From NCBI GenBank assembly GCA_964527765.1, contig CAZGQR010000004.1:64083-128082 (forward strand): a DNA stretch of 64,000 bases, written 5' to 3'. This stretch comes from an uncultured Planctomycetia bacterium. Its GTDB lineage: Bacteria; Omnitrophota; Gorgyraeia; Tantalellales; Tantalellaceae. How positions within the stretch are numbered: the first letter of the stretch is position 1; each line of letters starts with the position of its first letter. The notes under the pieces were generated by a model, which worked only from the letters and a program-made list of their open reading frames with translations, was not told the origin of the DNA and searched no databases. A program made the translations under genes and the position numbers. Of the stretch, positions 18,741 to 39,606 are shown one piece after another.

Positions 18741-18742
18741 GT

Positions 18743-22917: not shown

Positions 22918-22927
22918 AGGCAAAAAT

Positions 22928-23983
22928 ATGACTGTCAACGAAAAGCATATGGACGATCTGGTAAAAACATTATTTGACAGAGGGGATCCTTACGAAGTTC
23001 TGGAAAAGGAACAGGGTCCGGCCGTGAGGGAATATCGCCGCAAATGGAAGATGGCGGGTGAACACCTTTCGGAGTTTCAGTATCCGCTGCATCTAAATTT
23101 TGAACTGGTCTACGGATGCAATCTGCGATGCGAATTCTGCATTTTTAATTTGCCGGCGGAAGAATGGGATTATAAAGCAAGGCCGGGCGATAAGATCTCT
23201 TTCGAGAAGTATCAGGAAGTGGTGGATGAGGGGGTAAGGCACGGCCTTTGTTCTATTGCCCTGAACGGGTACAATGAGCCGTTGCTTCAGGCCGATATCG
23301 TAAAATACATTGATTATGCGAGAAAAGCAGGGGTTTTGGATGTGTCGTTGCATACGAACGGTCTTCTTTTAACGGAAAAAATGTCCAGGGCGCTTATTGA
23401 TTCAGGTTTAACGATGATAATGTTTTCCATAGATGCTGCTACCGGGAAGACGTATGAAAAGATAAGGCAAAGCCGTGATTTCAACAAAGCAATAAAGAAT
23501 GTCACGGATTTCGTGGCACTGAAAAAAACCGCTGGTAAGGCATTGCCCCTGACCAGAGTCTCGTTCGTGGAAACCAAGGTAAACCATATGGAATTGGAGG
23601 ATTTCGTTTCCTACTGGCGGAATAAGATCGATTTTTTCACGGTTCAGACTTTTTTCAATCCTTTTGTCGGCAAGGATAATTACGAAAAAATAGAGAGCGA
23701 ATACCGCCTTAAAGATACGTCTTTTTCGGTTTGCGCGGAACCGTATCAGCGTCTGATGATAACCTGTGACGGTAACGTTCTGCCTTGTTGTTCGAATTAC
23801 GGCCTGGGTCTGGTAGTCGGCAATATTTATCAGGATTCCGTTTACAACATTTGGAACAGCAAAAAGATGAAAGAATTGCGCTCGAAAATCAACGGTTCAA
23901 AGGAAGTTCAGCCGGAAGCCTGCAGAAAGTGCAGAGCTTCCGTCATGTCCCCTAAAAGCGGGATGAAAGAGGAAACGTCATGA
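22928..23983 (+). CDS. Radical SAM enzyme with C-terminal SPASM/twitch domain
   Basis: CNLRCEFC (CX3CX2C) near N-terminus. C-terminal Cys-rich TCDGNVLPCCSNYG...EACRKCRAS. AAAGG RBS before ATG 22928. The longer ORF from 22874 would overlap the upstream gene, so the shorter start is preferred. Confidence 0.75.
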   Translation: MTVNEKHMDDLVKTLFDRGDPYEVLEKEQGPAVREYRRKWKMAGEHLSEFQYPLHLNFELVYGCNLRCEFCIFNLPAEEWDYKARPGDKISFEKYQEVVDEGVRHGLCSIALNGYNEPLLQADIVKYIDYARKAGVLDVSLHTNGLLLTEKMSRALIDSGLTMIMFSIDAATGKTYEKIRQSRDFNKAIKNVTDFVALKKTAGKALPLTRVSFVETKVNHMELEDFVSYWRNKIDFFTVQTFFNPFVGKDNYEKIESEYRLKDTSFSVCAEPYQRLMITCDGNVLPCCSNYGLGLVVGNIYQDSVYNIWNSKKMKELRSKINGSKEVQPEACRKCRASVMSPKSGMKEETS

Positions 23984-25812
23984 ATATTCTGGGATTAAAT
24001 CTGGAAGAGTTTTGCAGCGCGGCGGTCATGAAGAACGGAGAAATAACCGCGGCATGCGCCGAGGAAAGATTTACGCGTGAAAAAGGATATTCTGGCTTTC
24101 CCAAAAGGTCGATAGAGTATTGCCTGGAAGAATCGGGTCTCGGGATAAATGATATTGACTTGGTCGCTGTCGCCGATCTCGGAACCAGCGTGATGGGGTT
24201 TGTATTTTCCTACGTGCAGAGAAGGTCCAGATTTTCCGTAGACGATTATGTGAGAGAGGCCAAAGATTACTGGTACCCGATGCTCTACCAGAACAAGGAT
24301 GTGGATTATCTGGAGATCTTTAAGGATAAACTGTGTCTTGAGACCTTTCCGGAGGAGTTTAATGATCATTTTTTCAAAGAGATAGACAGGTATAAAAGGG
24401 CGGATTTCCGCGAGATACAGAAGCTGAAAAAACGCCTCATAAAGACATATTATCCGCAGATAGACGAGGATCGGATTAAATTTTTTCCGCACCATGAGAT
24501 ACACGCGCTTTACGGTTATTACGGTTCAAAGTTCGCCGGGGAGAAAGAGTCCGTTTTGATCATTACGGCGGACAGCTGGGGCGATTTTGAGAACGGAACG
24601 ATCTCTCAGTTTAAAGACGGCAGATTTGAAGTCCTTCATATTGTTGATAACCAGAATCTGGGCAGGCTTTTCAGGAATATGACTTTATACCTGGGAATGA
24701 AACCTTATGATCATGAATACAAAGTCATGGGGCTTGCTGCATATGCTCCGGAATATCTCAGCAGGCCCGCTTATAACGTGTTTTCCGGCATCATGGACGT
24801 GGATAATATTGATTTCTTTTATAGAGAGAACCCGAAGGACCATTATTTCTGGTTTAAGGATAAGCTGGAAGGTATACGTTTTGACGGCGTGGCAGGGGGC
24901 TTGCAGAGTTATTTTGAAGATTGCGTGCAGAAATGGATCACGGCCGCTGTAAAAAAATATGGCATTAGAAGGGTCTGTTTTTCCGGCGGACTGGCGATGA
25001 ACATCAAGGCGAACATGAAACTCGGACAAATGGAGGGGGTAGAGGATTTTTTTGTCGCCGCTTCCCCGGATGATAATTCCAACTGTATCGGTGTCTGTTT
25101 TCTGGCCATGTACCGGGAATCGGAGCAGAGCAAAGGAGATATGTTCGGGATCAAACCGCTTGGATCCATGTATCTGGGGCCGGATATTACCGATACCGAG
25201 ATCCGGGAAGCCATTATTGAAAATAAGCTGGATGAATTTTGTGCCGTTACTGAGAATGTTAAAACAGATTACATCGCTGGTAGGCTGACGGAAGGTATTG
25301 TCATAGGGCGCGCCTCCGGAAGGATGGAATTCGGTGCCAGAGCCCTTGGAAACAGATCTATTCTTGCGGATCCGAGAAATCTGGGCATTGTCAACCGCAT
25401 AAACAGGATCATCAAAAAAAGGGATTTCTGGATGCCGTTCGCTCCCGTCGTAATCGATACTTACTGGGATAAATATCTGGTCAACAGGAATGATCTGTTT
25501 TCTCCCTTCATGACAGTTGGGTTCGAGACTACCGAAGCGGGGCGAAGGGATATGCCCGCAGCGATCCATCCTGCCGACAAGACTACCAGGCCTCAGATGT
25601 TGGCGAAAGAAGCTAATCCGGACTATTACGGCATAATCCGGGAATTTGAGAAGAGAACAAAAGTCGGAGCCCTGATAAATACTTCATTCAATTTACACGG
25701 TTATCCCATAGTCAGAAGCGCCCAGGATGCCGTGGATGTTTTCCTGAATTCGGACCTGGACGCCTTATTGCTCAATGATACATATATAGAAAAGCGAAGA
25801 AAAAAGTCATAA
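23980..25812 (+). CDS. NodU/CmcH-family carbamoyltransferase
   Basis: N-terminal ILGLNLEEFCSAAVMKNGEITAACAEERFTREKGYSGFP is a Carbam_trans_N signature. About 600 aa, as for NodU/NovN-type O-carbamoyltransferases. ATGA overlap with the radical SAM gene. Confidence 0.8.
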   Translation: MNILGLNLEEFCSAAVMKNGEITAACAEERFTREKGYSGFPKRSIEYCLEESGLGINDIDLVAVADLGTSVMGFVFSYVQRRSRFSVDDYVREAKDYWYPMLYQNKDVDYLEIFKDKLCLETFPEEFNDHFFKEIDRYKRADFREIQKLKKRLIKTYYPQIDEDRIKFFPHHEIHALYGYYGSKFAGEKESVLIITADSWGDFENGTISQFKDGRFEVLHIVDNQNLGRLFRNMTLYLGMKPYDHEYKVMGLAAYAPEYLSRPAYNVFSGIMDVDNIDFFYRENPKDHYFWFKDKLEGIRFDGVAGGLQSYFEDCVQKWITAAVKKYGIRRVCFSGGLAMNIKANMKLGQMEGVEDFFVAASPDDNSNCIGVCFLAMYRESEQSKGDMFGIKPLGSMYLGPDITDTEIREAIIENKLDEFCAVTENVKTDYIAGRLTEGIVIGRASGRMEFGARALGNRSILADPRNLGIVNRINRIIKKRDFWMPFAPVVIDTYWDKYLVNRNDLFSPFMTVGFETTEAGRRDMPAAIHPADKTTRPQMLAKEANPDYYGIIREFEKRTKVGALINTSFNLHGYPIVRSAQDAVDVFLNSDLDALLLNDTYIEKRRKKS

Positions 25813-25860: not shown

Positions 25861-26841
25861 ATGAAAAAAGTATTGATCACGGGTGCCGGCGGATTTATTG
25901 GTTCACATCTGGCCGAATTATGCGTGCGAAAAGATTACAAGGTAAATGCCCTGGTCCGTTATAATTCCAACAATAGCCGAGGGTGGTTGGAGGGCGTTAA
26001 ATGCAAAAATAAGATCAACATTATAAGCGGTGATATCAGGGATTACGATTCGGTCTATAGTGCCTTAAGCGGCTGCGATACCGTTTTTCATCTGGCTGCG
26101 CTGATAGGCATTCCATATTCGTATATTACCCCCCTGGCGTATCTCAAGACCAATATCGAAGGAACTTATAATGTTCTGGAAGCTTCAAAAGGACTGGGCT
26201 TGAAAAATGTTATTATTACCTCTACGAGCGAGACTTACGGGACGGCGCAGTATGTCCCCATAGACGAAAGGCATCCCATGGTTGGGCAGTCTCCTTATTC
26301 GGCGACGAAGATATCAGCCGATCAACTTGCTTTGAGTTATTACTGTTCATTTGATCTGCCGGTCAAGGTTGTCCGCCCTTTCAACACGTACGGTCCGCGG
26401 CAATCTACCCGCGCGATCATACCCACGATCATCACGCAGTTGCTTTCCGGAAAGAAAAAGATAAAACTCGGGGCTTTGCATCCGACGAGAGATCTGGTTT
26501 TTGTTAAAGATACCGTGGAAGGATTCCTGAAAATAGCAAGATCCGGCAAGACGACAGGCAAAATTATAAACATAGCGACTCAGACAGAGATTTCCATAGG
26601 GGACCTTGCGAAGAAAATAATCGATATGATCGATCCCGAAGCGGAAATAATAGCGGACAGGACCAGGCTAAGACCCGGCAAGAGCGAAGTGGAAAGACTG
26701 CTTGGGAGCAATGAAGAAATAAAAAAACTGACCGGGTGGAAGCCGAGGTACAGTCTGGATAAAGGTCTGAAAGAGACGGTTGAATGGTTTAAGAATGGGA
26801 AAAATTTAAGATTATATCCGACGGATATCTACAATGTATAA
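25861..26841 (+). CDS. Extended-SDR NDP-sugar 4,6-dehydratase/epimerase (LegB-like candidate)
   Basis: Rossmann ITGAGGFIGSHL. TSTSETYG and SPYSATKISADQL (YxxxK) resemble the RmlB/GMD-like dehydratase catalytic blocks. Confidence 0.7.
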   Translation: MKKVLITGAGGFIGSHLAELCVRKDYKVNALVRYNSNNSRGWLEGVKCKNKINIISGDIRDYDSVYSALSGCDTVFHLAALIGIPYSYITPLAYLKTNIEGTYNVLEASKGLGLKNVIITSTSETYGTAQYVPIDERHPMVGQSPYSATKISADQLALSYYCSFDLPVKVVRPFNTYGPRQSTRAIIPTIITQLLSGKKKIKLGALHPTRDLVFVKDTVEGFLKIARSGKTTGKIINIATQTEISIGDLAKKIIDMIDPEAEIIADRTRLRPGKSEVERLLGSNEEIKKLTGWKPRYSLDKGLKETVEWFKNGKNLRLYPTDIYNV

Positions 26842-27934
26842 AAAGATATATTTAGACGCGCCGAATGTCGGGACGCTGGAAAAAGAATTGTTGAGTAAAA
26901 CCATAGACAGCGGGTATGTATCGACCGTAGGTCCTTATGTGCCGGAGCTGGAACGGAGGATCGCGAAATATCTGGATGTTAAAAAAGCCGTTTCGACCCA
27001 GAGCGGAACAGCGGCTATTCATATGGCTTTGCATGAGCTGGGAGTGGGCGGCGGCGACGAAGTGATCGTTCCCGCTTTGACGTTCGTCGCAACGGTGAAC
27101 CCCGTTGTGTATGTAGGGGCCACGCCGGTTTTTGCGGACGTGAATATTGACACCTGGAATATCGATCCTGGAAATATCGAGAAAGTTATCACGAAAAAAA
27201 CAAAAGCGATAATACCGGTTCATCTATACGGCAATCCCTGCAATATGGACGCGATAATGAGAATAGCCGGCAAATACGGCTTGTACGTGATAGAGGACGC
27301 GACTGAAAGCCTGGGGGCGAAATATAAGGATAAACATACAGGGACTTTCGGCGATTTCGGGTGTTTCAGTTTCAATGGGAACAAGATCATTACCACCGGC
27401 GGCGGGGGAATGATTACCGGCAATAATGGGAGGAAGATAAGCCATGTCAAGATGCTGGTTAATCAGGCAAGAGATGAGGGAAAGGAATATTATCATCCGG
27501 AGGTGGGATTTAATTACAGGATGACCAATATCGAGGCATCATTGGGTCTGGGGCAGATGGAAAAATTGGATGATTTTTTAGCGAAAAAGAAGAAATTCAA
27601 TACAATCTACAGGGAAGAGTTGAAAGACATGGAGTTTGTCCGTTTTCAGCAGGAATGCGGGGACGGTGAAAGCTCCTGGTGGCTGTCGTGCGTTGTTTTC
27701 GGGAAAGGCATAGATATAGCCGGTTTACAGGAGAAGTTAAAAGAAAAAGGGATTCCCACAAGAAGGGTTTTTCCGCCGGTCGTGGAATTCCCGCCTTATA
27801 GGTCGCACAAACATGCTGGGTACGAAAATTCTTACCACATTTATGAAGGAGCGCTCTGTTTGCCCAGCTCCACGCTTAATTCCGCGGATGATATACATTA
27901 TGTCTGCGAAAAGATGAAAGGCTCATTTAGATGA
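26834..27934 (+). CDS. DegT/DnrJ/EryC1-family PLP-dependent sugar aminotransferase
   Basis: TQSGTAAIHMAL, ALTFVATVNPVVYVGATPVFADV, and the lysine region FSFNGNKIITTGGGGM. Confidence 0.8.
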   Translation: MYKKIYLDAPNVGTLEKELLSKTIDSGYVSTVGPYVPELERRIAKYLDVKKAVSTQSGTAAIHMALHELGVGGGDEVIVPALTFVATVNPVVYVGATPVFADVNIDTWNIDPGNIEKVITKKTKAIIPVHLYGNPCNMDAIMRIAGKYGLYVIEDATESLGAKYKDKHTGTFGDFGCFSFNGNKIITTGGGGMITGNNGRKISHVKMLVNQARDEGKEYYHPEVGFNYRMTNIEASLGLGQMEKLDDFLAKKKKFNTIYREELKDMEFVRFQQECGDGESSWWLSCVVFGKGIDIAGLQEKLKEKGIPTRRVFPPVVEFPPYRSHKHAGYENSYHIYEGALCLPSSTLNSADDIHYVCEKMKGSFR

Positions 27935-28590
27935 GGATAGTTCTCTTTATCAAAAAGGATAAGCCTGCGACAGGAGAAGTTATCGAGTATTTGAGCAAGC
28001 GCTCGGATGATTTCATATTTTACGCGGGGGCCAGGGAAGACGGATTTCCGGAAGAAGCCGTTATATCTTTTCAGGATATATTGATCTCATATTTGTCTCC
28101 CTGGGTGATCCCGGAGGGGACGCTGAAGAATACAAGGCTTTGGAACATAAATTTCCATCCCGGCCCCCCGGAATATCCCGGGATAGGCTGTTTTAATTTC
28201 GCGATATACAACGGCGAGAAGTCTTACGGTGTTACCGCTCACCTGATGGATAAAAGTGTCGACAGCGGAAAAATAATAGCCGTTAAGAGATTTCCATTGC
28301 TTCCGTCCGATTCTGTGCACAGCCTGAGCGTGAAAAGCTATGAATGCATGCTTTCCCTGTTCCGCGAAGTGATGGACCTGGTCCTGGCGAAAGGCGAGAT
28401 CCCGGATTGCGGCGAAAAATGGCAGAGGAAAGCCTACAGGCGGGAAGATCTGGAAGATTTGTGCAGGATAGACCCGGGCATGGGAAAAGAAGAGATAGAA
28501 AAACGGATCAAAGCGACTACTTATCCCGATATGCCGGGCGCCTATATGGATATAGTCGGTTATAGATTTGCATATGCCCCTGACAGGTGA
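27931..28590 (+). CDS. Fmt-family formyltransferase (sugar N-formyltransferase-like, N-terminal domain only)
   Basis: WNINFHPGPPEYPGIGCFNFAIYNGEKSYGVTAHLMDKSVDSGKII matches the Formyl_trans_N N-H-D active-site region. 219 aa. ATGA overlap with the upstream gene. Confidence 0.7.
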   Translation: MRIVLFIKKDKPATGEVIEYLSKRSDDFIFYAGAREDGFPEEAVISFQDILISYLSPWVIPEGTLKNTRLWNINFHPGPPEYPGIGCFNFAIYNGEKSYGVTAHLMDKSVDSGKIIAVKRFPLLPSDSVHSLSVKSYECMLSLFREVMDLVLAKGEIPDCGEKWQRKAYRREDLEDLCRIDPGMGKEEIEKRIKATTYPDMPGAYMDIVGYRFAYAPDR

Positions 28591-29600
28591 TAAGAATGAG
28601 CAAGGTTTTTATAATAGCCGAAGCGGGAGTTAACCATAACGGAAGCATTGAACTGGCGAAGTGCCTGGTGGATTCGGCTGCAGAAGCCGGAGCGGATGCC
28701 GTGAAGTTCCAGACGTTCAGAGCGGAGAAAATGACCAGCAAGTTCGCGCCCAAGGCCGCGTACCAGGAAGAAACGACTTCTGGGTCGGAATCCCAGCTTG
28801 ATATGCTAAAAAAACTGGAATTGGACTCGAACGCACATGTGGAGATCATCGAATACTGCAGGAAGAAAAGCATCATGTTCCTTTCGGCACCGTTTGATAT
28901 TGAAAGCGTGGATCTGCTCGATAAATTGGGGCTTGAAATGTTCAAGATCCCCTCAGGCGGTGTAACGGACCTTCCTTATTTGGAAAGGATAGGAAGCCTA
29001 GGGAAGAAGGTCATAATGTCGACCGGGATGGCGGATCTGAAAGAGATAGAAGAGGCACTGGACGTGCTTACAAGATCAGGAACTTCGAAAGAGGATATAA
29101 CCATTTTACATTGCAATACGGAATATCCGACGCCGGTCGAAGATACAAATTTGGCCGCCATGCTCACAATGAAAAAAGTTTTTAAGGCCAACGTCGGGTA
29201 CTCCGATCATACGACAGGCACGGAGGTTCCCATAGCGGCGGTAGCTCTGGGAGCGTCCATGATAGAGAAGCATTTTACGCTGGATAAGGGCATGGAAGGC
29301 CCCGACCACAGGATGTCATTGGAACCTCATGAGTTTAAGAGCATGGTCGAGGCTATAAGAAATATAGAAAAAGCCCTTGGTGACGGGAGAAAGAAGCCTT
29401 CCAAGTCCGAGGCCGGGAACAGGCGCATAGTCAGGAAGAGTATAGTGGCGGGGCGGGATATCAAAAAAGGGGAGATTTTTACCGAGGAAAACATAACGGC
29501 TAAAAGGCCGGGGTCGGGGATAAGCCCAATGCGTTGGCACGACGTGATCGGAAAAGTCGCAAAAAGGGATTTCAGGAAAGATGAGGTTCTGACGCTGTGA
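28587..29600 (+). CDS. NeuB-family nonulosonic acid synthase (NeuB/LegI-type) with C-terminal SAF domain
   Basis: FIIAEAGVNHNGSIELAKCLVDSAAEAGADAVKFQTF closely matches the NeuB/LegI N-terminus. C-terminal SAF (antifreeze-like) domain GRDIKKGEIFTEENITAKRPG. Confidence 0.85.
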   Translation: MIRMSKVFIIAEAGVNHNGSIELAKCLVDSAAEAGADAVKFQTFRAEKMTSKFAPKAAYQEETTSGSESQLDMLKKLELDSNAHVEIIEYCRKKSIMFLSAPFDIESVDLLDKLGLEMFKIPSGGVTDLPYLERIGSLGKKVIMSTGMADLKEIEEALDVLTRSGTSKEDITILHCNTEYPTPVEDTNLAAMLTMKKVFKANVGYSDHTTGTEVPIAAVALGASMIEKHFTLDKGMEGPDHRMSLEPHEFKSMVEAIRNIEKALGDGRKKPSKSEAGNRRIVRKSIVAGRDIKKGEIFTEENITAKRPGSGISPMRWHDVIGKVAKRDFRKDEVLTL

Positions 29601-30778
29601 AAAGAAAAGTCTGTGTTGTCACGGGTTCGAGAGCGGAATACGGGCTTTTGAAGCCGCTGTTGGCCGAGATTAAAAACGACGGAGAAATGGAACTGCAGTT
29701 GATAGTGACGGGCATGCATCTGTCTTCCGAGTTTGGATTAACCTTCCGTGATGCGGAAAAGGACGGTTTTCTTATTAAAGAAAAAATAGACATTCTTCTG
29801 GATTCAGATACTCCCGTCGGTATCGCGAGATCCATGGGGCTCGCGCTGAAAAGTTTTGCCGAAGGATACGAACGGCTGCAGCCGGATTGCGTTGTCGTTC
29901 TTGGCGATCGATTTGAGCTGTTCGGAGTCGTCGCAGCGGCTCTTGTAAGCAGGATACCCGTTGTCCATATACACGGAGGGGAGCTTACAGAAGGCGTTTT
30001 TGACGACGCCATCCGCCATTCAATAACCAAGATGAGCCACCTGCATTTTACATCGACCGAGGAATACAGAAAAAGAGTCATCCAGCTGGGTGAAGATCCG
30101 AAGCGGGTTTTTAACGTGGGGGCGTTAGGTATAGATAATGTAAAAAGATTAACTCTTGTGCCTAAAGAAGAGTTAGAGAAAGAATGGGTTTTCACGTTCG
30201 CCAAACATAATATTTTGGTCACATTTCACCCGGTCACTCTTGAGGACAATACGGCGCAGGAACAATTTCGGAACGTACTTGATGTGATGGACGGGATCCC
30301 CGATATGCATATTATTTTCACTAAAGCGAACGCCGACCCGGGCGGAAAGACCATTAACGGTATGATCGATGAATATGTGTCGAGGAACAGCCGTAAAGCT
30401 GTCGCGGTAACGTCCATGGGAACGGCGAAATACCTTTCAACGATGAAGCTTGTCGATGCCGTGGTCGGCAATTCATCCAGCGGCATTATCGAGGCCCCGA
30501 GTTTCAGGGTTCCTACCGTCAATATCGGCGATCGGCAAAAGGGGCGAGTCAGAGCAAAGAGCGTGATAGATTGCGAACCTACGAAAAAAGGGATAAAAAG
30601 GGCGATAGAAAGACTGTATTCCGAAGAATTCCAGAAAAGCCTTGAAAATGTGGTTAATCCATACGGTGACGGCAATACCGCGAAAAGGATCAAGGGTATC
30701 CTGAAGTCCAACGACCTGACCGGCATCGTGAAAAAGTCTTTTTATGATATGACTGGAGGGCGTAATGAGGTATTGTAA
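29597..30778 (+). CDS. UDP/GDP-N-acetylglucosamine 2-epimerase (hydrolysing), NeuC/LegG-type
   Basis: KVCVVTGSRAEYGLLKPLL...VVLGDRFELFGVVAAAL...HIHGGE is the NeuC-family signature. GTGA overlap with the upstream gene. Confidence 0.85.
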   Translation: MKRKVCVVTGSRAEYGLLKPLLAEIKNDGEMELQLIVTGMHLSSEFGLTFRDAEKDGFLIKEKIDILLDSDTPVGIARSMGLALKSFAEGYERLQPDCVVVLGDRFELFGVVAAALVSRIPVVHIHGGELTEGVFDDAIRHSITKMSHLHFTSTEEYRKRVIQLGEDPKRVFNVGALGIDNVKRLTLVPKEELEKEWVFTFAKHNILVTFHPVTLEDNTAQEQFRNVLDVMDGIPDMHIIFTKANADPGGKTINGMIDEYVSRNSRKAVAVTSMGTAKYLSTMKLVDAVVGNSSSGIIEAPSFRVPTVNIGDRQKGRVRAKSVIDCEPTKKGIKRAIERLYSEEFQKSLENVVNPYGDGNTAKRIKGILKSNDLTGIVKKSFYDMTGGRNEVL

Positions 30779-31892
30779 AAAATGTGTGATGCCGGATACC
30801 AGACCCGGAATCGTTTTTGACGAAAAAGGTGTTTGCCATCCCTGTAAAGTGACCGAAGAAAGAAAGAAGATCGACTGGGACGCAAGATTAAATGAATTGA
30901 GGAAGTTGTGCGATAAATACAGGGGGATAAACGGGGACTATTACGATTGTATTATCGCGGTGAGCGCGGGGAAAGACAGCCATTTTCAAGTATATGTCAT
31001 GAAGGAATTGATGGGGATGAATCCCCTTCTTGTCAATGTCTATAATTTCAGTTGGACTCAGACAGGGTTGCATAATTTTAATAACATAAGTGAGGCATTC
31101 GGGTGTGACATTATTTCGCTGCATCTCAACAGAAAAATCGCCAGGAAGATGCTTTGGAAAGCTCTTGTGAAGATGGGGTCGCCGACCTGGTACTGGGACA
31201 GGGCAGTTTATGCCTTTCCTTTAAGGGTCGGCATAAATTTTAATGTCCCTTTGATCGTATATGGCGAAAATATAAGCTATGAATACGGCGGCCCACAGGT
31301 GAAAGAGACATACAGCGCCAGGGAGCAGATCGATAATGATGTGGTAAAAAATGTGGATTGGGATTACTGGCTGGACGATGAAATAACAATGAAGGATCTG
31401 AATGGGGTCGTATATCCCGGCAAGGAGGAATCGGAAAAAGCGGGTCTGGAGCCCATATATCTCAGCTATTTCGTGAGATGGGACGGGCACAGGAACATGG
31501 AGATTGCGAAAAGGTATGGTTTCAAATCCCTGAAAGACACCGGCGAGTGGGATAGAAAAGGTTATATAGAAGATTACGACCAGATAGACGCCGTAGGTTA
31601 TCTCGTCCATCCGTGGTTGAAGTACCCCAAATACGGGCACGCACGCGCTACGGATGTCGCCTGTTACTGGATAAGGACGGGCCGTATCACAAGGGAGGAA
31701 GGGATAAAACTGGTGAAGGAACATGATCACGAGCTTGACGGAAAGGCCCTGAAGGATTTCCTTGATTTTGTGGGGCATACGGAAGAAGAATTCTGGCAGG
31801 CGGTGGAAAGGTTCTATAACAGGGATATCTTCGAAAAAGTAGAGGGCCGATGGATGCTAAAAGACCCTATTTACAAGGATTTGAAGGAGTGA
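30765..31892 (+). CDS. N-acetyl sugar amidotransferase (PseA/WbpG-like PP-loop family)
   Basis: MRYCKKCVMPDTRPGIVFDEKGVCHPC zinc-ribbon N-terminus followed by PP-loop IAVSAGKDSHFQ, as in PseA/WbpG acetamidino-forming enzymes. Confidence 0.75.
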   Translation: MRYCKKCVMPDTRPGIVFDEKGVCHPCKVTEERKKIDWDARLNELRKLCDKYRGINGDYYDCIIAVSAGKDSHFQVYVMKELMGMNPLLVNVYNFSWTQTGLHNFNNISEAFGCDIISLHLNRKIARKMLWKALVKMGSPTWYWDRAVYAFPLRVGINFNVPLIVYGENISYEYGGPQVKETYSAREQIDNDVVKNVDWDYWLDDEITMKDLNGVVYPGKEESEKAGLEPIYLSYFVRWDGHRNMEIAKRYGFKSLKDTGEWDRKGYIEDYDQIDAVGYLVHPWLKYPKYGHARATDVACYWIRTGRITREEGIKLVKEHDHELDGKALKDFLDFVGHTEEEFWQAVERFYNRDIFEKVEGRWMLKDPIYKDLKE

Positions 31893-31893
31893 T

Positions 31894-32961
31894 ATGAGGG
31901 ACATAGTTTCTAAGATAAGGATCTCTCCGGAGGCGTCGATAAAAGAAGCCCTGAAGAAGATTGATGAAGCGGGTCTGGCGATACTGTTTGTCTGCGGCAG
32001 AGACGGTTCTTTGCTGGGGTCGCTTACTGACGGCGATATAAGGAGAAAGGTCTTAAAAGGAGGGAACCTGCAGGAAAAGATCACCAATTGCTTTAACCGC
32101 AAGCCCGCCTTCGTCGTGGAAAACAATTATACCACGGAAGATGTAAAGGCACTCATGCTGGACAGGACGATCGAGGTCATTCCCGTGGTCGATAACATGA
32201 ACAGGATCGCGGATATACTGTTCTGGAAGGACTTGTTTGAAAAAGACAGCGTCTCCGGAAGAAAGATAAATGTCCCTTTGGTAATAATGGCCGGCGGAAA
32301 AGGGGAAAGGCTGGGCCCTTTCACCAAGATACTTCCCAAGCCCCTCATCCCCATAGGGGAAAAACCCATAATAGAGATAATCATAGACAAGTTCCGGCAG
32401 CACGGGGTGAAGCAGTTTTATATCACGCTGAATTATAAGGGCGAAATGATAAAAGCTTATTTCGAAAGCATTAAAAAGGAATGCTATATAGAATACGTCT
32501 GGGAAAAAGAATTTTTGGGGACAGCCGGCAGTTTAAAATTGATGCCTCTCCATTTAGAGGATACATTTATAGTATCTAACTGCGATATTATCGTGAATGC
32601 GAACTACGAGGATTTATTGAATTTCCATCAGGAGAACCAGAATGTATTGACCGCGATGGGGTCGATCCAGCATCATAGGATTCCTTATGGCGTCATTCAT
32701 TTCGAAAAAAAGGGGAAGGTGAAGAATATTCAGGAAAAGCCGGAATACGATCTCACGGTGAACACGGGAGTGTACGTGTTGTCTAAAAAAGTCTTTGATC
32801 TCATCCCCGAAAATGAATATTTCGACATGACGGATCTTATGCAGGTTCTTTTGGACAGGGGAGAGAATGTGGGGGTGTACCCCGTGTCCCAGAAGTCCTA
32901 TGTGGATATCGGACAATGGGAAGAGTATAAAAAAGCGATAGAAGACCTTGGGTTATTCTGA
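31894..32961 (+). CDS. CBS-pair domain fused to sugar-phosphate nucleotidyltransferase (PtmE-like)
   Basis: N-terminal CBS pair (about 120 aa) then MAGGKGERLGPFTKILPKPLIPIGEKPIIE nucleotidyltransferase G-loop. Same architecture as Campylobacter PtmE of the legionaminic acid pathway. Confidence 0.7.
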   Translation: MRDIVSKIRISPEASIKEALKKIDEAGLAILFVCGRDGSLLGSLTDGDIRRKVLKGGNLQEKITNCFNRKPAFVVENNYTTEDVKALMLDRTIEVIPVVDNMNRIADILFWKDLFEKDSVSGRKINVPLVIMAGGKGERLGPFTKILPKPLIPIGEKPIIEIIIDKFRQHGVKQFYITLNYKGEMIKAYFESIKKECYIEYVWEKEFLGTAGSLKLMPLHLEDTFIVSNCDIIVNANYEDLLNFHQENQNVLTAMGSIQHHRIPYGVIHFEKKGKVKNIQEKPEYDLTVNTGVYVLSKKVFDLIPENEYFDMTDLMQVLLDRGENVGVYPVSQKSYVDIGQWEEYKKAIEDLGLF

Positions 32962-32978
32962 CGGGGGGTGTCGTCGGT

Positions 32979-33674
32979 ATGTTTCAAAATAAAAAAATTC
33001 TGGCTTTGATTCCTGCCAGGGGCGGCAGTAAGGGGCTTTCGCGTAAGAATATAAAACTCTTATCCGGAAAACCATTGATCGCGTGGACGATAGAAAGAGC
33101 GAGAAACAGCAAGTATATTGACGAGATCGTTGTTTCTACGGACGATGAAGAAATAGCCGAAGTTTCCAAACAATACGGGGCGGAGATCCCCTTCTTGAGG
33201 CCCGAAGAATTGGCTACGGACGAAGCAAAAGGGGTGGATGTCGCTTTACACGCGGTTGAGCGGCTGAAAACTGATGGTAGGGTCTATGATTTATTGATAC
33301 TATTGCAGCCTACTTCTCCGCTTCGGGTGTCGGAAGATATTGATAAGGCAATAGAGCTGCTTTTTTCAAAAAGCGCAAAGGCTGTTGTTTCGGTGCATGA
33401 GATCAGGCACCATTCTTATAAAGCCAATAATTTGCCTGAAGATGGGTGCATGAAAGATTTTATCAGACCCGAAGCCATGAATAAAAATAGACAGGATTTA
33501 CCGGTCTTTTACGGGTTAAACGGTGCTATTTATTTAGCTTATTGTGATTACATGGAAAGGCAAAAAAGCTTTTTCGGGAATGAGACCTTTGCTTATATAA
33601 TGCCGCGGAAAAGATCAGTCGATATCGACGATGAAATAGATTTCAAGATGGCAGAGACCCTGCTGGAGTCGTGA
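32979..33674 (+). CDS. CMP-nonulosonic acid synthetase (acylneuraminate cytidylyltransferase family, NeuA/LegF-like)
   Basis: ILALIPARGGSKGLSRKNIKLLSGKPLIAWTIERA is the CTP_transf_3 N-terminal signature. Confidence 0.8.
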   Translation: MFQNKKILALIPARGGSKGLSRKNIKLLSGKPLIAWTIERARNSKYIDEIVVSTDDEEIAEVSKQYGAEIPFLRPEELATDEAKGVDVALHAVERLKTDGRVYDLLILLQPTSPLRVSEDIDKAIELLFSKSAKAVVSVHEIRHHSYKANNLPEDGCMKDFIRPEAMNKNRQDLPVFYGLNGAIYLAYCDYMERQKSFFGNETFAYIMPRKRSVDIDDEIDFKMAETLLES

Positions 33675-33709: not shown

Positions 33710-34726
33710 ATGTACGATTATTTAAACAACAAAACGGTTTTAATAACGGGTGGCACAGGGTCTTTCGGCAGGAAATGTACGGAACTGTTGCTGAAGAACG
33801 CTAAACTGCGCAAACTTATCATTCTAAGCCGTGATGAGCTGAAACAACACGATATGGCTCGCGTTTTTAACAGCAGTTTCTATGACACCAAGATAAGTTA
33901 TTATCTCGGCGACGTGCGGGACAGCCAGCGGCTGCACAGGGCGTTTCACGGCGTGGATTATGTCGTTCACGCGGCCGCGCTTAAACAGGTTCCCGCCGCA
34001 GAGTATAATCCGGACGAAGTAATTAAGACCAATGTTATGGGTGCTATAAACGTTGTAAATGCCGCTATAGACCAGGGGGTCAAAAAGGTTGTCGCGCTCA
34101 GTACGGATAAAGCGGTCAATCCCGCGAATCTGTATGGCGCGAGCAAGCTCTGTTCGGATAAATTATTTATTGCGGGCAACTCTTATGTTGGGGATGCCGG
34201 GACACATTTCAGTGTGGTGCGTTACGGAAATGTTATCGGATCCAGAGGAAGTGTTATCCCCGTATTTTTGGAAAAAAGGGAAAAAGGGGTTTTGCCGGTT
34301 ACCGACGAACGGATGACCAGGTTCTGGCTGACGATTGAAAACGGGGTTAATTTCGTTCTGCGGTGTTTAAAGGAGATGGAGGGTGGGGAGATTTTTATCC
34401 CTAAGATTCCCAGCATGAAGATTGCAGATCTGGCAAAAGCGATCGCCCCTGGTTGCAAGATTGAGAAGGTCGGGATAAGGCCCGGCGAGAAGATCGACGA
34501 ATGTTTGCTTACGGAAGACGAAGCAAGGTATGCGCTTGAATTTGAAGATTTTTTTGTGATTATTCCACAACGTCCATGGTGGAAGTCGGATAAGTGGGAA
34601 AACGGCAGAAAATTGCCCGATGGATTCAGATATGCCAGCAATACTAACGATCGCTGGTTAAGCGAAAACGAATTACAGGAGATGACCGGAGATTTGAATG
34701 GAACATATTTCTTACGGCAGGCATAG
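33710..34726 (+). CDS. pseB: UDP-N-acetylglucosamine 4,6-dehydratase (inverting), PseB/FlaA1
   Basis: KTVLITGGTGSFGRK...KLIILSRDELKQHDM is near-identical in pattern to PseB/CapD short-form enzymes. YxxxK present. Confidence 0.85.
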   Translation: MYDYLNNKTVLITGGTGSFGRKCTELLLKNAKLRKLIILSRDELKQHDMARVFNSSFYDTKISYYLGDVRDSQRLHRAFHGVDYVVHAAALKQVPAAEYNPDEVIKTNVMGAINVVNAAIDQGVKKVVALSTDKAVNPANLYGASKLCSDKLFIAGNSYVGDAGTHFSVVRYGNVIGSRGSVIPVFLEKREKGVLPVTDERMTRFWLTIENGVNFVLRCLKEMEGGEIFIPKIPSMKIADLAKAIAPGCKIEKVGIRPGEKIDECLLTEDEARYALEFEDFFVIIPQRPWWKSDKWENGRKLPDGFRYASNTNDRWLSENELQEMTGDLNGTYFLRQA

Positions 34727-35837
34727 CATCGATAAGAGCGATATAGACGGTGTGGTCAGGGCCTTAAAGTCGGATCGGATCACCCAGGGCCCCGCTGTGC
34801 CTGAGTTTGAAGCGGCCCTATGTCGGTATACAGGCGCTGAATATGCGGTGGCGGTTTCGAGCGGGACAGCTGCTTTGCATATCAGCTGTTTAGCCGCTGG
34901 CATAGGTAAAGGGGACAGGGTTATAACCTCGCCCATGACTTTTCTGGCGACAGCGAATTCCGTATTGTACTGCGGAGGAAAGCCGGTTTTTGCGGATGTC
35001 CATGAAGACACAGCGAACATCGATCCGGAAGAGATAAAAAAGAAGATAACAAAGAAAGTGAAAGCGATCATCCCGGTCCATTTCGCCGGGCATCCGGCCG
35101 ATTTAGAGGAGATCCGCAGTATCGCCGATAAACATGATTTAACGGTGATTGAAGATGCCTGTCACGCGCTGGGGGCGGAATATAAAGGTTCCCGGATAGG
35201 GGCCTGCAAGCATTCGGACATGACGGTTTTCAGTTTTCACCCGGTAAAACACATTACGACAGGTGAAGGGGGAGCTGTTACAACGAACCGCAAGGACCTG
35301 TATGAGAAACTTTTGATGCTGAGAAATCACGGGATAACCAGAGAAAAAGAAAAACTCGGTAGATGGGATGGTCCATGGTATTACGAACAGCAGATGCTCG
35401 GTTTTAATTATCGCATAAGCGATTTTCAGTGTGCCCTGGGGATCAGTCAGCTTCAAAGACTTGACACGTTTTTGAAGAGACGTAGAAGAATCGTTGATTA
35501 TTACAATAAGCAGTTTTCCAGCATCGATGGCCTTATATTGCCCGTGGAACGGCCGTATGTAAGATCTTCCTGGCATATATATTGTGTAAAATTCCGCAGA
35601 TATTCGCGAAGAAAAAAGATATTCGAGGGTTTACATAGGGCAGGCATCGGCGCTCAGATCCATTATATTCCCGTTCATTTGCAACCGTATTATCGCGGAA
35701 ATTTTGGATATAAAAGGGGGGATTACCCGAAAGCCGAAGAGCATTACCGTAAAACCACAACCATACCTCTTTACCCCAAAATGGAGGGGACAGAGAAGTG
35801 TCATGTAGCGAACATTTTAAGGACGTTATTGAAATGA
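34698..35837 (+). CDS. pseC: UDP-4-amino-4,6-dideoxy-N-acetyl-beta-L-altrosamine transaminase, PseC
   Basis: ISYGRHSIDKSDIDGVVRALKSDRITQGPAVPEFE matches the PseC N-terminus. DegT-family PLP lysine region. 29-nt overlap with pseB. Confidence 0.8.
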   Translation: MEHISYGRHSIDKSDIDGVVRALKSDRITQGPAVPEFEAALCRYTGAEYAVAVSSGTAALHISCLAAGIGKGDRVITSPMTFLATANSVLYCGGKPVFADVHEDTANIDPEEIKKKITKKVKAIIPVHFAGHPADLEEIRSIADKHDLTVIEDACHALGAEYKGSRIGACKHSDMTVFSFHPVKHITTGEGGAVTTNRKDLYEKLLMLRNHGITREKEKLGRWDGPWYYEQQMLGFNYRISDFQCALGISQLQRLDTFLKRRRRIVDYYNKQFSSIDGLILPVERPYVRSSWHIYCVKFRRYSRRKKIFEGLHRAGIGAQIHYIPVHLQPYYRGNFGYKRGDYPKAEEHYRKTTTIPLYPKMEGTEKCHVANILRTLLK

Positions 35838-37207
35838 AGATTTTGTTGATCAACCCGCCTATACGAGAATGGTCCAAGCCCAATGTTTTTCCTTTGGGAT
35901 TGGGATATATTGCGGCTGTATTGCTCAGGGACGGACATGATGTTGAGGTGCTGGATATAAATGCTTATCGGTTTGATAAAGAGGAAGTTGAAAACAGGAT
36001 CAGAGACCTTGATTTTGACATAGTCGGTATCGGCGGGATAGTGACAATATATGCGTATGTTAAATGGCTGACAGGGATGATAAAAAGATATCATCCCGGG
36101 AAGAAAGTCATTGTCGGCGGCAGTGTCGGTTCTTCCATTCCAAGGATCATGCTGGAAAAAAATCCCGTCGATGTCGTTTGTATTGGCGAGGGGGAGGAAA
36201 CGATCAGGGAGCTGGCCAGGGCGCTGGAAAATAACGGGGATCTATCAAAGATCAAAGGGATCTGGTACAGGGGGAATAAGGGTGAAGCATGTCAGAACGA
36301 AATACGCCCCCCTATTAAGGATTTGGATGAAATACCTTTGCCGGCATGGGATCTTTTCCCGATGGATATATATCTTAAAAATCCGGTAGGCGCGCCGAAC
36401 AGGAATAAGTGGATAGATGGTTCGGCGGATAATGAGGAAAGCCTTTCGATGAATGTATTTGCTACCAGGGGGTGTCCGTATCAATGCATTTACTGTTACC
36501 ATGATTTCATGGGGCAGGGGTATCGCACGCGTTCTCCGGAAAATATAATCAAGGAAATAAGAACCCTTTACGAACGGTACGGCGTTAAGTATTTTCATTT
36601 TATCGACGATGAATTGGTTTTGAATAAAAGTTTCATTTATGAGCTGTGCAGACGGTTTACGGCGCTCAGCAAAGAGACCGGGCGCAAGATAACCTGGGGA
36701 TGTGCCGGCAGGGTCAATCTTATGACGGAAGATCTGGTCTCCTCCATGGCTGATGCCGGTTGCGTTTTAATAGGTTACGGCATAGAAACGGGTAGCTTGA
36801 AAATGCTGGAATTAATCAAAAAAAACACGACAGTTGAGCAGGCAAAAGATGCCATACGCCTTACCAGAAAATATCTCGGATGGGCGGACACTTCATTCAT
36901 GATTGGTTATCCCGGCGAGACGCGGAGCACGGTTCAAGAGACAGTAGATTTTTGCAAAGAATTAGATTTAACGCCCGAAGTGATTTTTTTCATGACCCCT
37001 TATCCGGGGACAGAATTATATTCGATGGCCTTGAAACAGGGCAGGATCAAGGATGAAGAGAAATACTTGCTTGGATTGGGAGAGCAGGGCGAGAAAATCA
37101 GGGTTAATTTCACGGATTTTTCCGACAGTGAACTTTACCGGATCCAAGCGGAGATGATAGAGGAATTGAACGCGTGGAACAAAATAAAACATCCTGAAGC
37201 GAGGTGA
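35834..37207 (+). CDS. B12-binding domain radical SAM enzyme (class B-like)
   Basis: N-terminal cobalamin-binding-like region (MKILLINPP...GLGYIAAVL...VEVLDIN). CPYQCIYC CX3CX2C motif. Start placed at ATG 35834 (ATGA overlap with the pseC stop) rather than ORF-track 35798. Confidence 0.75.
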   Translation: MKILLINPPIREWSKPNVFPLGLGYIAAVLLRDGHDVEVLDINAYRFDKEEVENRIRDLDFDIVGIGGIVTIYAYVKWLTGMIKRYHPGKKVIVGGSVGSSIPRIMLEKNPVDVVCIGEGEETIRELARALENNGDLSKIKGIWYRGNKGEACQNEIRPPIKDLDEIPLPAWDLFPMDIYLKNPVGAPNRNKWIDGSADNEESLSMNVFATRGCPYQCIYCYHDFMGQGYRTRSPENIIKEIRTLYERYGVKYFHFIDDELVLNKSFIYELCRRFTALSKETGRKITWGCAGRVNLMTEDLVSSMADAGCVLIGYGIETGSLKMLELIKKNTTVEQAKDAIRLTRKYLGWADTSFMIGYPGETRSTVQETVDFCKELDLTPEVIFFMTPYPGTELYSMALKQGRIKDEEKYLLGLGEQGEKIRVNFTDFSDSELYRIQAEMIEELNAWNKIKHPEAR

Positions 37208-37211
37208 TTGA

Positions 37212-37925
37212 ATGAATATCGTTGGAATTATTCCCGCCAGAGGAGGAAGCAAAGGGATCAAAGGAAAGAACATTATTGATATCAACGGGAAACCTCTCAT
37301 CGGATATACGATAGAGGACGCATTATCTTCAAAGCTTATCAACAGGATCGTGGTTTCCACGGATAGCGATGAGATAGCAAGCGTTGTCTCAGGTATGTAC
37401 GATGTGGAGGTCATAAAAAGACCGTCTGCATTTGCCAGAGACGATTCTCCGATTGAAGAAGCTTTGCTGCATGTAGTCGAATATCTGGAACAGAAGGAAA
37501 AATATACCGTTGATCTCGTGGTATGGATGCAAGCCAACGTGCCCATAAGAAAAGAGGGAATAATCGACGAAGCTGTTGTCAGGCTTGTTAATTCCGATGC
37601 GGATTCCTGCGTGACATGTTATGAGGTGGATCAAATACCCGAGGTGATGAAGGTAATGAATGAAAAAGGGAGACTGGCACCCTTATTTGAGGATGTAAAA
37701 GGCATAAGAAGGCAGGAGTTCCCTAAAAAGTATTTACTTGATGGTTCGGTTGTCGCTTTAAGGGCGAAAAATCTTTTCCAGACCCGCGGGATAAGGAAAG
37801 CGCACATATATCTGGGCAGGGAAATCATCCCGCTTATTCAGGAAAAGAAGATGTATACGCTTGAAATTGACGTTCCGGAGGATATTTTGTCCGTGAAGTA
37901 TTATATGGAAAAGGTCGATCGATGA
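37212..37925 (+). CDS. pseF: CMP-pseudaminic acid synthetase-like cytidylyltransferase, PseF
   Basis: NIVGIIPARGGSKGIKGKNIIDINGKPLIGYTIEDA is the CTP_transf_3 signature. Position between pseC and pseG. Confidence 0.75.
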   Translation: MNIVGIIPARGGSKGIKGKNIIDINGKPLIGYTIEDALSSKLINRIVVSTDSDEIASVVSGMYDVEVIKRPSAFARDDSPIEEALLHVVEYLEQKEKYTVDLVVWMQANVPIRKEGIIDEAVVRLVNSDADSCVTCYEVDQIPEVMKVMNEKGRLAPLFEDVKGIRRQEFPKKYLLDGSVVALRAKNLFQTRGIRKAHIYLGREIIPLIQEKKMYTLEIDVPEDILSVKYYMEKVDR

Positions 37926-38923: not shown

Positions 38924-39603
38924 AGGATTTGGAAGGACTGAAGTTCCCCGATGATTATGTCATAAAATTCTTTTTTAAGGAGAAATTGGACGTTTCAACA
39001 GGGAGAGTATTGGAATTCGGATGCAGTAACGGAAATAACCTGATGTTGTTTTTTCAATTTGGGTGGGAAGTAATCGGGGTGGACAAAGATAAAAAGCTGC
39101 TGGAGATGGGGAGCAGGAATTTCGCCAAATGCCGCAAAGAACATAATCTATCCAATCAATTCGATTTGATTTGCCAAGACATGATCGATTTCGTAAAAAG
39201 TCATGGTGGTTTGGTCCTCGACGTGCTTTTATTGCCCAATATTATCTGCTATCTGAGTTATTCTCAGATTTTGGAGTTTTTCCGCGAAATAAAAAAGGCG
39301 GGAATGCTAAAGAAGGGTTCATTAATATTTATACGCACAAGAGACCTGAAAGACTACAGGTTCGGGAAGGGCGAAAGGATCGACAGCAATACATACAGGC
39401 TCAAGATAGGGGAAACGGGAGAGAACGGGTGCATAAATACGTTTCTTTCACCGGAGGAGCTGGCAGGTATAGTGGAGAAGAATTTTGAACTTGAATATAA
39501 ACATCTGTTCGAATGCTATTTCGATAACCGCCAAATGGATCGTTTAGTCGGCAATGCCGATATAATCTTTTGGGGGAAAGTGCAAAATACGACCAAAGCA
39601 TAG
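38914..39603 (+). CDS. Class I SAM-dependent methyltransferase
   Basis: Motif I VLEFGCSNGNNL with the acidic residue GVDKD. Confidence 0.55.
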   Translation: MLLKDLEGLKFPDDYVIKFFFKEKLDVSTGRVLEFGCSNGNNLMLFFQFGWEVIGVDKDKKLLEMGSRNFAKCRKEHNLSNQFDLICQDMIDFVKSHGGLVLDVLLLPNIICYLSYSQILEFFREIKKAGMLKKGSLIFIRTRDLKDYRFGKGERIDSNTYRLKIGETGENGCINTFLSPEELAGIVEKNFELEYKHLFECYFDNRQMDRLVGNADIIFWGKVQNTTKA

Positions 39604-39606
39604 AAT

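Follow-up and report, generated by a model that had tools for sequence, protein, structure and literature searches.

A small sugar formyltransferase, which we call FMT, takes the slot of an acetyltransferase in an operon for legionaminic acid (Leg), a nonulosonic acid, in an uncultured bacterium of the GTDB phylum Omnitrophota (contig CAZGQR010000004.1, positions 64,083 to 128,082; this stretch of 64,000 nt is referred to as the window, and coordinates are positions in it unless another locus is named). We confirmed that the operon and its formyltransferase gene lie at 25861-33674 on the plus strand, and the identity of the operon is well supported: it combines a known Leg gene logic, widespread in metagenomes, with an FMT family for which we found no biochemical characterisation in the searched literature. 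We propose, with a probability of about 0.6, that this operon follows the GDP route to Leg, that FMT formylates the C4 amine of the nucleotide sugar, which corresponds to N7 of Leg, and that the product would be CMP-Leg5Ac7Fo, leading to Leg5Am7Fo.

To assign gene families, we compared Pfam and NCBIfam hidden Markov model (HMM) scores with their curated cut-offs. Eight overlapping or abutting open reading frames (ORFs) fill the interval on one strand, exactly from the start of LegB to the stop of the CMP-sugar synthetase. Their junctions (–8, –4, –4, –4, –14, +1 and +17 nt, from 5΄ to 3΄) indicate that the eight genes are translationally coupled. LegB (25861-26841) is an NAD-dependent NDP-GlcNAc 4,6-dehydratase with GxxGxxG and YxxxK motifs, and scored 476.3 bits against TIGR04180 (cut-off 475), compared with 176.5 bits for the runner-up family, dTDP-glucose dehydratase. 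LegC (26834-27934), which overlaps LegB by 8 nt, is a LegC-family pyridoxal phosphate-dependent aminotransferase (DegT_DnrJ_EryC1, 372.6 bits) predicted to make the C4 amine; its score of 416.4 bits against TIGR04181 lies 3.6 bits under the cut-off of 420 and is its best match by approximately 150 bits (PseC, 267.8). FMT itself (27931-28590), a predicted sugar N-formyltransferase of 219 aa with a Formyl_trans_N domain, is coupled by ATGA overlaps to LegC upstream and to LegI downstream.

LegI (28587-29600) is a NeuB-family nonulosonic acid synthase with NeuB and SAF domains and a GVNH motif at residue 14; it scored 508.5 bits against TIGR03569 and 320.9 bits, under the PseI cut-off, against the PseI model. 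Its true start is likely the ATG at 28596, given that the publicly annotated gene starts 6 nt downstream of the FMT stop and encodes 334 aa. Because its matches in the PDB (SpsE 213.8, PseI 209.9 and NeuB 179.8 bits) do not discriminate among Leg, Neu and Pse synthases, and there is no Leg-specific model or solved LegI for comparison, the name LegI rests on synteny. The remaining genes encode LegG, a hydrolysing NDP-sugar 2-epimerase (29597-30778; TIGR03568, 497.1 bits); an N-acetyl sugar amidotransferase of the WbuX/PseA/PtmG type (30765-31892; TIGR03573, PP-loop motif SAGKDS); a PtmE-like protein that joins a CBS domain (44.6 bits) to a sugar-1-phosphate nucleotidyltransferase (NTP_transferase, 136.4 bits; 31894-32961) and is the presumed supplier of GDP-GlcN(Ac); and a CMP-nonulosonate synthetase (32979-33674; CTP_transf_3, 97.7 bits), which is LegF by position and reached 188.2 bits against the PseF model, below the cut-off of 205.7. 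Similar gene sets in a conserved order recur in dozens of unrelated genomes, which excludes a chance arrangement. LegB is 56-65% identical to its counterparts in the Leg clusters with FMT or with an acetyltransferase that are described below, LegC is 57-68% identical to the aminotransferases of a subset of these clusters and 34-42% to those of the remainder, and the PtmE-like protein and LegF are kept at 33-68% and 38-60% identity, respectively.

The first-pass annotation of this region had recognized a Leg-type gene set, and its coordinates, the family scores and the conserved gene order all agree with that description. We nevertheless considered a different assignment, in which the synthase and the epimerase belong to a Neu5Ac pathway, whereas the dehydratase, the aminotransferase and FMT make a separate N-formyl 6-deoxyhexose, because the NCBIfam models passed by the synthase and the epimerase are named N-acetylneuraminate synthase and UDP-GlcNAc 2-epimerase. 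However, LegB passes the LegB-specific model, LegC has the LegC model as its best match, and the pair appears to be of the Leg type and not from an unrelated 6-deoxyhexose branch. Among solved structures, LegG comes closest to the GDP/UDP-N,N΄-diacetylbacillosamine hydrolysing 2-epimerase (5zlr, 359.6 bits), to which it is twice as close as to human GNE (169.3 bits). Moreover, the order LegB-LegC-FMT-LegI-LegG-PtmE-LegF is kept across phyla, and the eight genes are translationally coupled. We accordingly discarded this assignment, which appears extremely improbable in light of the LegB and LegC scores, the structural match of LegG and the conserved synteny.

We next consider FMT. It scored 49.1 bits against Formyl_trans_N (PF00551; cut-off 26.1), and its Asn74, His76 and Asp111, the conserved N-H-D residues of formyltransferases named by the first-pass annotation, are intact, invariant across 22 homologues and aligned with the NxH...D residues of Brucella WbkC. 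The best sequence match in the PDB was WbkC (E = 1.9e-16), the GDP-perosamine N-formyltransferase, whose substrate is the GDP-linked 4-amino-4,6-dideoxyhexose GDP-4-amino-4,6-dideoxymannose, followed by WlaRD (3.5e-13), ArnA (~4e-12) and PseJ (1.9e-7, over residues 30-147). A model predicted with AlphaFold from an alignment of the family (pLDDT 91.7, pTM 0.88) retrieved only formyltransferase-fold proteins with Foldseek, and the leading matches (WbkC, Rv3404c, VioF, Francisella 4nv1 and ArnA; TM 0.67-0.80, E = 1e-13 to 1e-16) were sugar 4-N-formyltransferases. The N-terminus is approximately 30 residues shorter than that of WbkC (FMT 33-211 aligned with WbkC 66-242). As judged from the model and the triad, FMT is a complete, compact sugar N-formyltransferase with the two-subdomain fold present. 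The first-pass label of an Fmt-type enzyme, in the sense of methionyl-tRNA formyltransferase, should thus give way to a compact sugar N-formyltransferase closest to WbkC. WbkC, Rv3404c, VioF, WbtJ and the ArnA N-domain remain the best sequence or fold matches with an aligned Asn-His-Asp triad, although the identity of FMT to these small sugar 4-N-formyltransferases is just 18-26% and its context is a nonulosonic acid pathway, whereas WbkC-type enzymes belong to O-antigen deoxyhexose pathways.

The closest functional parallel is PseJ, whose product we take to be Pse5Ac7Fo. In both cases a small enzyme of the formyltransferase fold stands in an acetyltransferase position: PseJ (PDB 6ci2/6ci4) replaces PseH on a 4-amino nucleotide sugar and thereby leads to a 7-N-formyl nonulosonic acid. 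However, PseJ acts in the Pse (UDP, L-altro) route and FMT in the Leg route, and the two are only distantly related, as the E value of 1.9e-7 against 1.9e-16 for WbkC indicates. The pseudaminic acid (Pse) cluster next to the operon (33710-41426) contains no formyltransferase, and FMT itself lies inside the Leg genes. Judging by the weak, partial match and the Leg rather than Pse context, FMT does not appear to be an ortholog of PseJ, and the two look like independent recruitments. PseJ is cited in a study in which Pse5Ac7Fo is among the synthetic targets (PMC11040635).

In the canonical Leg pathway, LegH acetylates the C4 amine with acetyl-CoA. We found no LbH or GNAT acetyltransferase domain among the ORFs scanned between 11 and 63 kb, and a tblastn search of the 64-kb window with a representative LbH acetyltransferase of the NeuD/PglD type, a PIG-L deacetylase or a second formyltransferase gave no match. 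The contexts of the six nearest relatives of the WbuX protein in the window (69-80% identity) were all Leg clusters. In five of these (L084, L085, L086, L089 and L091), a PglD_N plus hexapeptide (LbH) acetyltransferase follows LegC and precedes LegI, the very position that FMT has in the window; the sixth (L090) is arranged differently, and its short hexapeptide gene is flanked by LegG and the aminotransferase. LegB, LegC and LegI of the five are mostly 57-68% identical to those of the window (LegC of L086, 40%). For example, L091 reads MarR, LegB (62%), LegC (68%), LbH, LegI (68%), LegG (48%), WbuX (80%) and, further on, PtmE (68%), and L085, from an Omnitrophica metagenome-assembled genome (MAG), contains LegB (61%), LegC (61%), an LbH-LegI fusion (61%), LegG (48%), WbuX (69%), PtmE (45%) and a radical SAM/SPASM protein (47%). 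These collinear clusters provide the strongest evidence that FMT may stand in for LegH. An argument from co-variation of LegG and LegI with cluster type, aimed at the enzymes that recognise the formyl group, was dropped because the identities in the two types of cluster overlap (for LegG, 39-64% in FMT-type and 48-59% in LbH-type clusters).

FMT is widely distributed. We found 835 homologues in a 90%-clustered database, nearly all of 215-230 aa, and 345 representatives at E ≤ 1e-30 in a 50%-clustered library. The family reaches at least 568 species genomes of GTDB, from bacteria and archaea; among them are Omnitrophota, Planctomycetota, Atribacterota, Elusimicrobiota, Fibrobacterota, Acidobacteriota, Chloroflexota, Bacteroidota, Desulfobacterota, Alpha- and Gammaproteobacteria and two archaeal MAGs. 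We then counted the genes around the 80 best FMT loci, taking as a Leg cluster any locus with four or more of the six core Leg genes no farther than 10 kb away. FMT lies inside such a cluster at 30 of the 80 loci, typically in the order LegB-LegC-FMT-LegI-LegG-PtmE-LegF, which is conserved across phyla. Only 4 of these 30 clusters, which come from GTDB genomes, contain an LbH gene, and the other 26 lack one within 10 kb. The most constant partners of FMT within 5 kb were an SDR of the 4,6-dehydratase type (35/49 loci) and DegT (33/49), including 17 loci without NeuB, and this constancy fits action on the amine made by DegT at the nucleotide-sugar level. WbuX formed part of the commonest accessory set, in 14 of the 30 clusters and always with HisH and HisF. 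The first-pass annotation considered the combination of genes in the operon unusual, a judgment that does not survive these counts of FMT and of FMT together with WbuX.

A PIG-L deacetylase was present in 8 of the 30 FMT-type clusters, and a second formyltransferase, Fmt2 (~295 aa; Formyl_trans_N plus Formyl_trans_C), in 6, always with PIG-L and usually as its neighbour (PIG-L and Fmt2 occur together at L003, L008, L009, L042, L043, L080, L084, L086 and L087). The pair also occurs in clusters that lack FMT and contain LbH (L084 and L086), and in L084 PIG-L is fused to LegG. This obligate pairing suggests a module that first deacetylates and then formylates the nitrogen derived from GlcNAc, which would leave the other nitrogen to FMT. 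The cluster of a Brocadia MAG (L082), with LegB, LegC, FMT (57% identity), LegI, a methyltransferase, LegG, PIG-L, a radical SAM/SPASM protein, LegF and PtmE, has neither Fmt2 nor LbH. Such gene content predicts a sugar with one formyl group and one free amine, and the prediction agrees with the CMP-nonulosonic acids of Ca. Kuenenia stuttgartiensis, for which one N-formyl group and one free amine were reported by mass spectrometry in the SugarBase preprint (bioRxiv 10.64898/2026.04.20.719630). The text of this preprint does not state which nitrogen bears the formyl group; it describes a Leg-like cluster encoding both a deacetylase and a formyltransferase and does not mention an acetyltransferase. 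Kuenenia and the window share a Leg-type cluster with a formyltransferase; at the level of the FMT family, the Brocadia cluster, of equivalent content, serves as proxy for Kuenenia. The window differs in having WbuX in place of the PIG-L deacetylase and no methyltransferase in the cluster, and the predicted products differ accordingly in carrying an amidino and a formyl group in the window and a free amine and a formyl group in Kuenenia.

If FMT acts at N7, the accessory genes would spell out the product of each cluster type: 5Ac7Fo for FMT alone, 5N7Fo for FMT with PIG-L, 5Fo7Fo for FMT with PIG-L and Fmt2, and 5Fo7Ac, the sugar of Halorubrum, for LbH with PIG-L and Fmt2, with WbuX adding an amidine. 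A bolder extension, which we regard as doubtful, is that the window makes an undescribed zwitterionic 5-acetamidino-7-formamido-Leg within a modular 'N-acyl code' spanning more than 10 phyla, in which FMT or LbH would set N7, PIG-L with or without Fmt2 would set N5, and WbuX would provide the amidine. No 5-amidino-7-formyl Leg was reported in the literature that we searched.

The amidine would depend on the WbuX protein, which matches TIGR03573 over the full model (359.2 bits, cut-off 203.2, positions 1-344 of 344), has the PP-loop ATP-pyrophosphatase motif SAGKDS at residue 67 and resembles PDB 8wex ('N-acetyl sugar amidotransferase', 120 bits). A tblastn search of the 64-kb window found no HisH or HisF, the WbuY/WbuZ-type partners. 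The WbuX of the window belongs to a stand-alone subfamily, 26-33% identical to HisHF-linked WbuX proteins and up to 80% identical to metagenomic relatives; its closest relatives lie in Leg clusters that likewise lack HisH and HisF.

Campylobacter jejuni offers a characterised comparison. Its GDP-route Leg pathway (LegB, LegC, LegH, LegG, LegI, LegF, PtmE and, for Leg5Am7Ac, PtmG/PtmH), the order of which was reportedly established by Schoenhofen and colleagues in 2009, has its core enzyme families in common with the window. Both also place a CBS-nucleotidyltransferase and a WbuX-family amidotransferase amid the Leg genes. The window differs from C. jejuni in lacking LegH, with the formyltransferase between LegC and LegI instead, in having no PtmA/PtmF-like genes and no PtmH methyltransferase in the operon, and in keeping its Leg genes in one compact operon, whereas those of C. 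jejuni are scattered. In C. jejuni, PtmG lies between legC and neuB and mediates acetimidoyl formation (bioRxiv 10.64898/2026.04.20.719630).

On this basis the pathway in the window may be outlined as follows. The PtmE-like enzyme would supply a GDP-hexosamine; LegB would dehydrate GDP-GlcNAc at C4/C6, and LegC would aminate C4 to give GDP-4-amino-4,6-dideoxy-GlcNAc. FMT would then move a formyl group, presumably from N10-formyl-tetrahydrofolate, onto the new C4 amine. LegG would hydrolyse the nucleotide and epimerise C2, and LegI would condense the resulting 6-deoxy-mannose derivative with phosphoenolpyruvate to Leg5Ac7Fo (5-acetamido-7-formamido-Leg). The WbuX/PtmG-type amidotransferase would convert the 5-N-acetyl group, which derives from GlcNAc, to acetamidino, giving Leg5Am7Fo, and LegF would finally activate the sugar with CMP. 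Among these details, we infer the formyl donor, the regiochemistry (formyl at N7, amidino at N5), the order of the last two steps and the GDP carrier.

Several observations weigh against this proposal. Two concern family scores, namely the 3.6-bit shortfall of LegC and the score of the cytidylyltransferase under the PseF cut-off, and a third concerns WbuX, which HisH and HisF accompany in all 14 other FMT-type clusters that have it and do not accompany in the window. LegH could be encoded outside the 64-kb window. FMT adjoins PtmE at 10 of 79 loci. In at least six cluster representatives FMT is fused to a PglD-type LbH domain, in both domain orders (P0363, P0371, P0378, P0380, P0383 and P0475; the fusion genes of loci L087 and L088 lie at 9001-10347 and 5586-6932 of those loci), and other representatives have FMT fused to ATP-grasp, GT2 or methyltransferase domains. 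L087, with the order LegF, LegB, LegC, LbH::FMT, LegI, Fmt2, PIG-L, LegG and PtmE, is hard to reconcile with a simple either-or use of acetyl and formyl groups. At Chitinophagales-type loci (L045, L046, L057, L059, L061, L063, L064, L071, L072, L078 and L081), FMT stands beside a PglD-type LbH together with AsnB, GT4, SDR, DegT and a PglC-like Bac_transf protein and without NeuB, an arrangement that suggests an N-formyl bacillosamine-like initiating sugar. Finally, the only structurally assigned N-formyl-Leg, that of Halorubrum sp. PV6, is formylated at N5 (PMC6137143).

These fusions and adjacencies imply that FMT and LbH often act in the same pathway and are not strict alternatives, so a strict one-for-one replacement of LbH by FMT is only something that we infer. 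The idea of the first-pass annotation that a formyltransferase takes the place of an acetyltransferase therefore stands as far as the shared slot in collinear clusters is concerned, and must be softened as to strict replacement.

The same observations can be arranged into another reading, in which FMT formylates the amine at C2 of the GDP-GlcN that PtmE makes, the nitrogen that becomes N5 of Leg, whereas N7 is acetylated by an unlinked LegH/PglD or left free, and the product is a 5-N-formyl-Leg. Adjacency of FMT and PtmE would then be expected, and co-occurrence or fusion of FMT with LbH would make sense if each acylates a different nitrogen. Halorubrum sp. PV6 provides a precedent: it carries 5-N-formyl-Leg on its glycoproteins and has, like the window, a Leg cluster with a predicted formyltransferase (HrrPV6_1050), in addition to a NeuD-like acetyltransferase gene (PMC6137143). 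The window, moreover, covers 64 kb only. However, the Chitinophagales-type loci combine FMT with SDR and DegT in the absence of PtmE and PIG-L; PIG-L with Fmt2 already explains re-acylation of N5, so that FMT would be redundant in the six clusters having all three; PIG-L would have no acetyl group to remove in a Brocadia-type cluster, with FMT and PIG-L and no LbH; and precisely the position of FMT is taken by LegH in collinear clusters. The Halorubrum system itself, with formyl at N5 and its NeuD-like acetyltransferase, is nearer to the type with LbH, PIG-L and Fmt2 (L084 and L086). We regard formylation at N5 as possible and rather unlikely.

It is also conceivable that a LegH encoded elsewhere makes mainly Leg5Ac7Ac and that FMT adds a minor N-formyl glycoform, similar to the acyl heterogeneity of the C. 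jejuni flagellar glycan. The genome beyond the window could hold such a gene, and the LbH::FMT fusions suggest that in some organisms both activities are offered to the same intermediate. However, LbH is missing within 10 kb in 26 of the 30 Leg clusters of the FMT type, FMT is translationally coupled between LegC and LegI, and the Kuenenia CMP-nonulosonic acids were reported as formylated, not acetylated. This scenario appears to us quite improbable. Formylation of the C4 amine by FMT thus remains the reading that we prefer.

The operon is embedded in a single co-directional glycan island of lower G+C content, extending on the plus strand from ~18.7 kb to beyond 63 kb. Ahead of the Leg operon it contains genes for a MarR-like protein, an ABC exporter and a 641-aa 'PFTS'-like protein, together with those of a radical SAM/SPASM enzyme and a NodU-type carbamoyltransferase; behind the operon come a Pse set and homologues of the four Campylobacter phosphoramidate enzymes, as well as two sulfotransferase-like genes, further methyltransferases, a second dehydratase/aminotransferase pair outside the Leg and Pse sets' own, and glycosyltransferases. 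Upstream of the MarR-like gene (at 18786), a promoter-like site, TTGACA-16-TATAAT (18713-18740, plus strand), agrees with the sigma-70 consensus in all 12 of its 12 positions; the site is situated in the one large intergenic gap (18488-18786), where G+C falls from ~0.51 to 0.40. In a promoter and terminator scan of the region, the counts of sites were at chance level, and only this 12/12 site stood out. The gap is probably the boundary and promoter of a single-strand glycan island of ~45 kb.

Immediately upstream of the Leg genes lie a radical SAM/SPASM enzyme (22874-23983; Radical_SAM and SPASM domains) and a NodU/CmcH-type carbamoyltransferase (23980-25812; Carbam_trans_N and Carbam_trans_C), both listed by the first-pass annotation and present by domain. 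Homologues of the former (23-47% identity) occur inside Leg clusters L082, L085, L089 and L091, and L090 carries a Radical_SAM plus SPASM gene by Pfam annotation alone. Radical SAM/SPASM genes are in fact recurrent in Leg clusters of Omnitrophota, the Brocadia MAG and metagenomic contigs, sometimes two in tandem. To our knowledge, no function in nonulosonic acid biosynthesis is known for such enzymes; the one in the window is a possible tailoring enzyme. A homologue of the carbamoyltransferase (38%) immediately precedes LegB in Omnitrophota L008, and L014 and L036 have weaker ones, which makes an O-carbamoylation step possible. The Leg sugar might be further decorated by these two co-operonic enzymes.

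Directly downstream of the Leg operon, at 33710-41426 on the plus strand, is the second nonulosonic acid gene set, which is complete but for PseH. PseB (490 bits), PseC (509) and PseI (465) pass their NCBIfam cut-offs, and a PseG-like gene (145 bits) falls slightly under its cut-off of 153.55; the set also includes a CTP_transf_3 gene (PseF), a B12-binding radical SAM enzyme, a methyltransferase and a WbqC-like protein, and contains no PseH acetyltransferase. We considered the WbqC-like protein (39607-40377) as a hidden acyltransferase and found no support for this: it had no sequence relative in the PDB, its single-sequence AlphaFold model reached a pLDDT of only 31.9, too low to be of use, and a literature search returned nothing relevant.

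Farther along the plus strand, 41454-47271 encodes homologues of Campylobacter Cj1418, Cj1417, Cj1416 and Cj1415 in the same order, enzymes that make CDP-phosphoramidate 3΄-phosphate (PMC11800397). The set consists of a PEP-utilising enzyme (PRK05849, 840 bits), a C26 glutamine amidotransferase (best NCBIfam match gamma-glutamyl-CDP-amidate hydrolase, 84.6 bits, below the cut-off of 250), an NTP_transf_3 protein and an APS-kinase-like protein; the two sulfotransferase-like genes are interleaved with them. The phosphoramidate gene set also follows the FMT-type Leg cluster of Omnitrophota L008. Decoration with phosphoramidate would, if true, be noteworthy beyond capsules of the Campylobacter type, and the Leg sugar might join a Pse-type nonulosonic acid in a glycan that carries phosphoramidate and sulfate groups.

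Large proteins (640-696 aa) without a Pfam domain flank Leg clusters; such large flanking proteins are encoded in the window at 20992-22917 and 48244-50160, in L084 at 11902-15924, in L085 at 13231-15270 and in L087 at 4069-6150 and 15211-17301 (positions in the respective loci). Those of L084, L085 and L087 are homologous to one another and show a weak relationship to the 'PFTS motif' protein of the window (TIGR04417, 68.7 bits, below cut-off), and the 638-aa protein at 48244-50160 had no detectable relatives among the fetched loci. These proteins are candidates for transferases that use CMP-nonulosonic acids. A third amino-sugar branch lies at 54970-61309 (plus strand), with a dTDP-glucose 4,6-dehydratase-like SDR (317.7 bits, below cut-off), a DegT aminotransferase, two methyltransferases, a GDSL esterase, an RmlD-like reductase and a GT2 glycosyltransferase. 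At the other end of the window, 893-3967 (plus strand) encodes an unusual 1024-aa GH57::GT5 glycogen/starch synthase fusion that adjoins two more GH57 enzymes and GlgC. The top matches with a taxonomic name to this housekeeping GlgC (66-80% identity) all come from Omnitrophota, in line with a Candidatus Omnitrophota host.

How phages, hosts and neighbouring cells recognise a bacterial surface depends on its nonulosonic acids, whose N-acyl groups determine charge and recognition. An FMT-type Leg operon leaves the established logic of nonulosonic acid biosynthesis as it is; nevertheless, the FMT family, with 345 clusters at 50% identity, has no characterised member in the searched literature and yet occupies the acetyltransferase slot of many Leg clusters. 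If FMT makes 7-N-formyl-Leg, a function would be provided for hundreds of proteins misannotated as 'methionyl-tRNA formyltransferase'. It would also offer an explanation for the formylated nonulosonic acids of anammox bacteria and a defined enzyme for preparing formyl-Leg donors in glyco-engineering.

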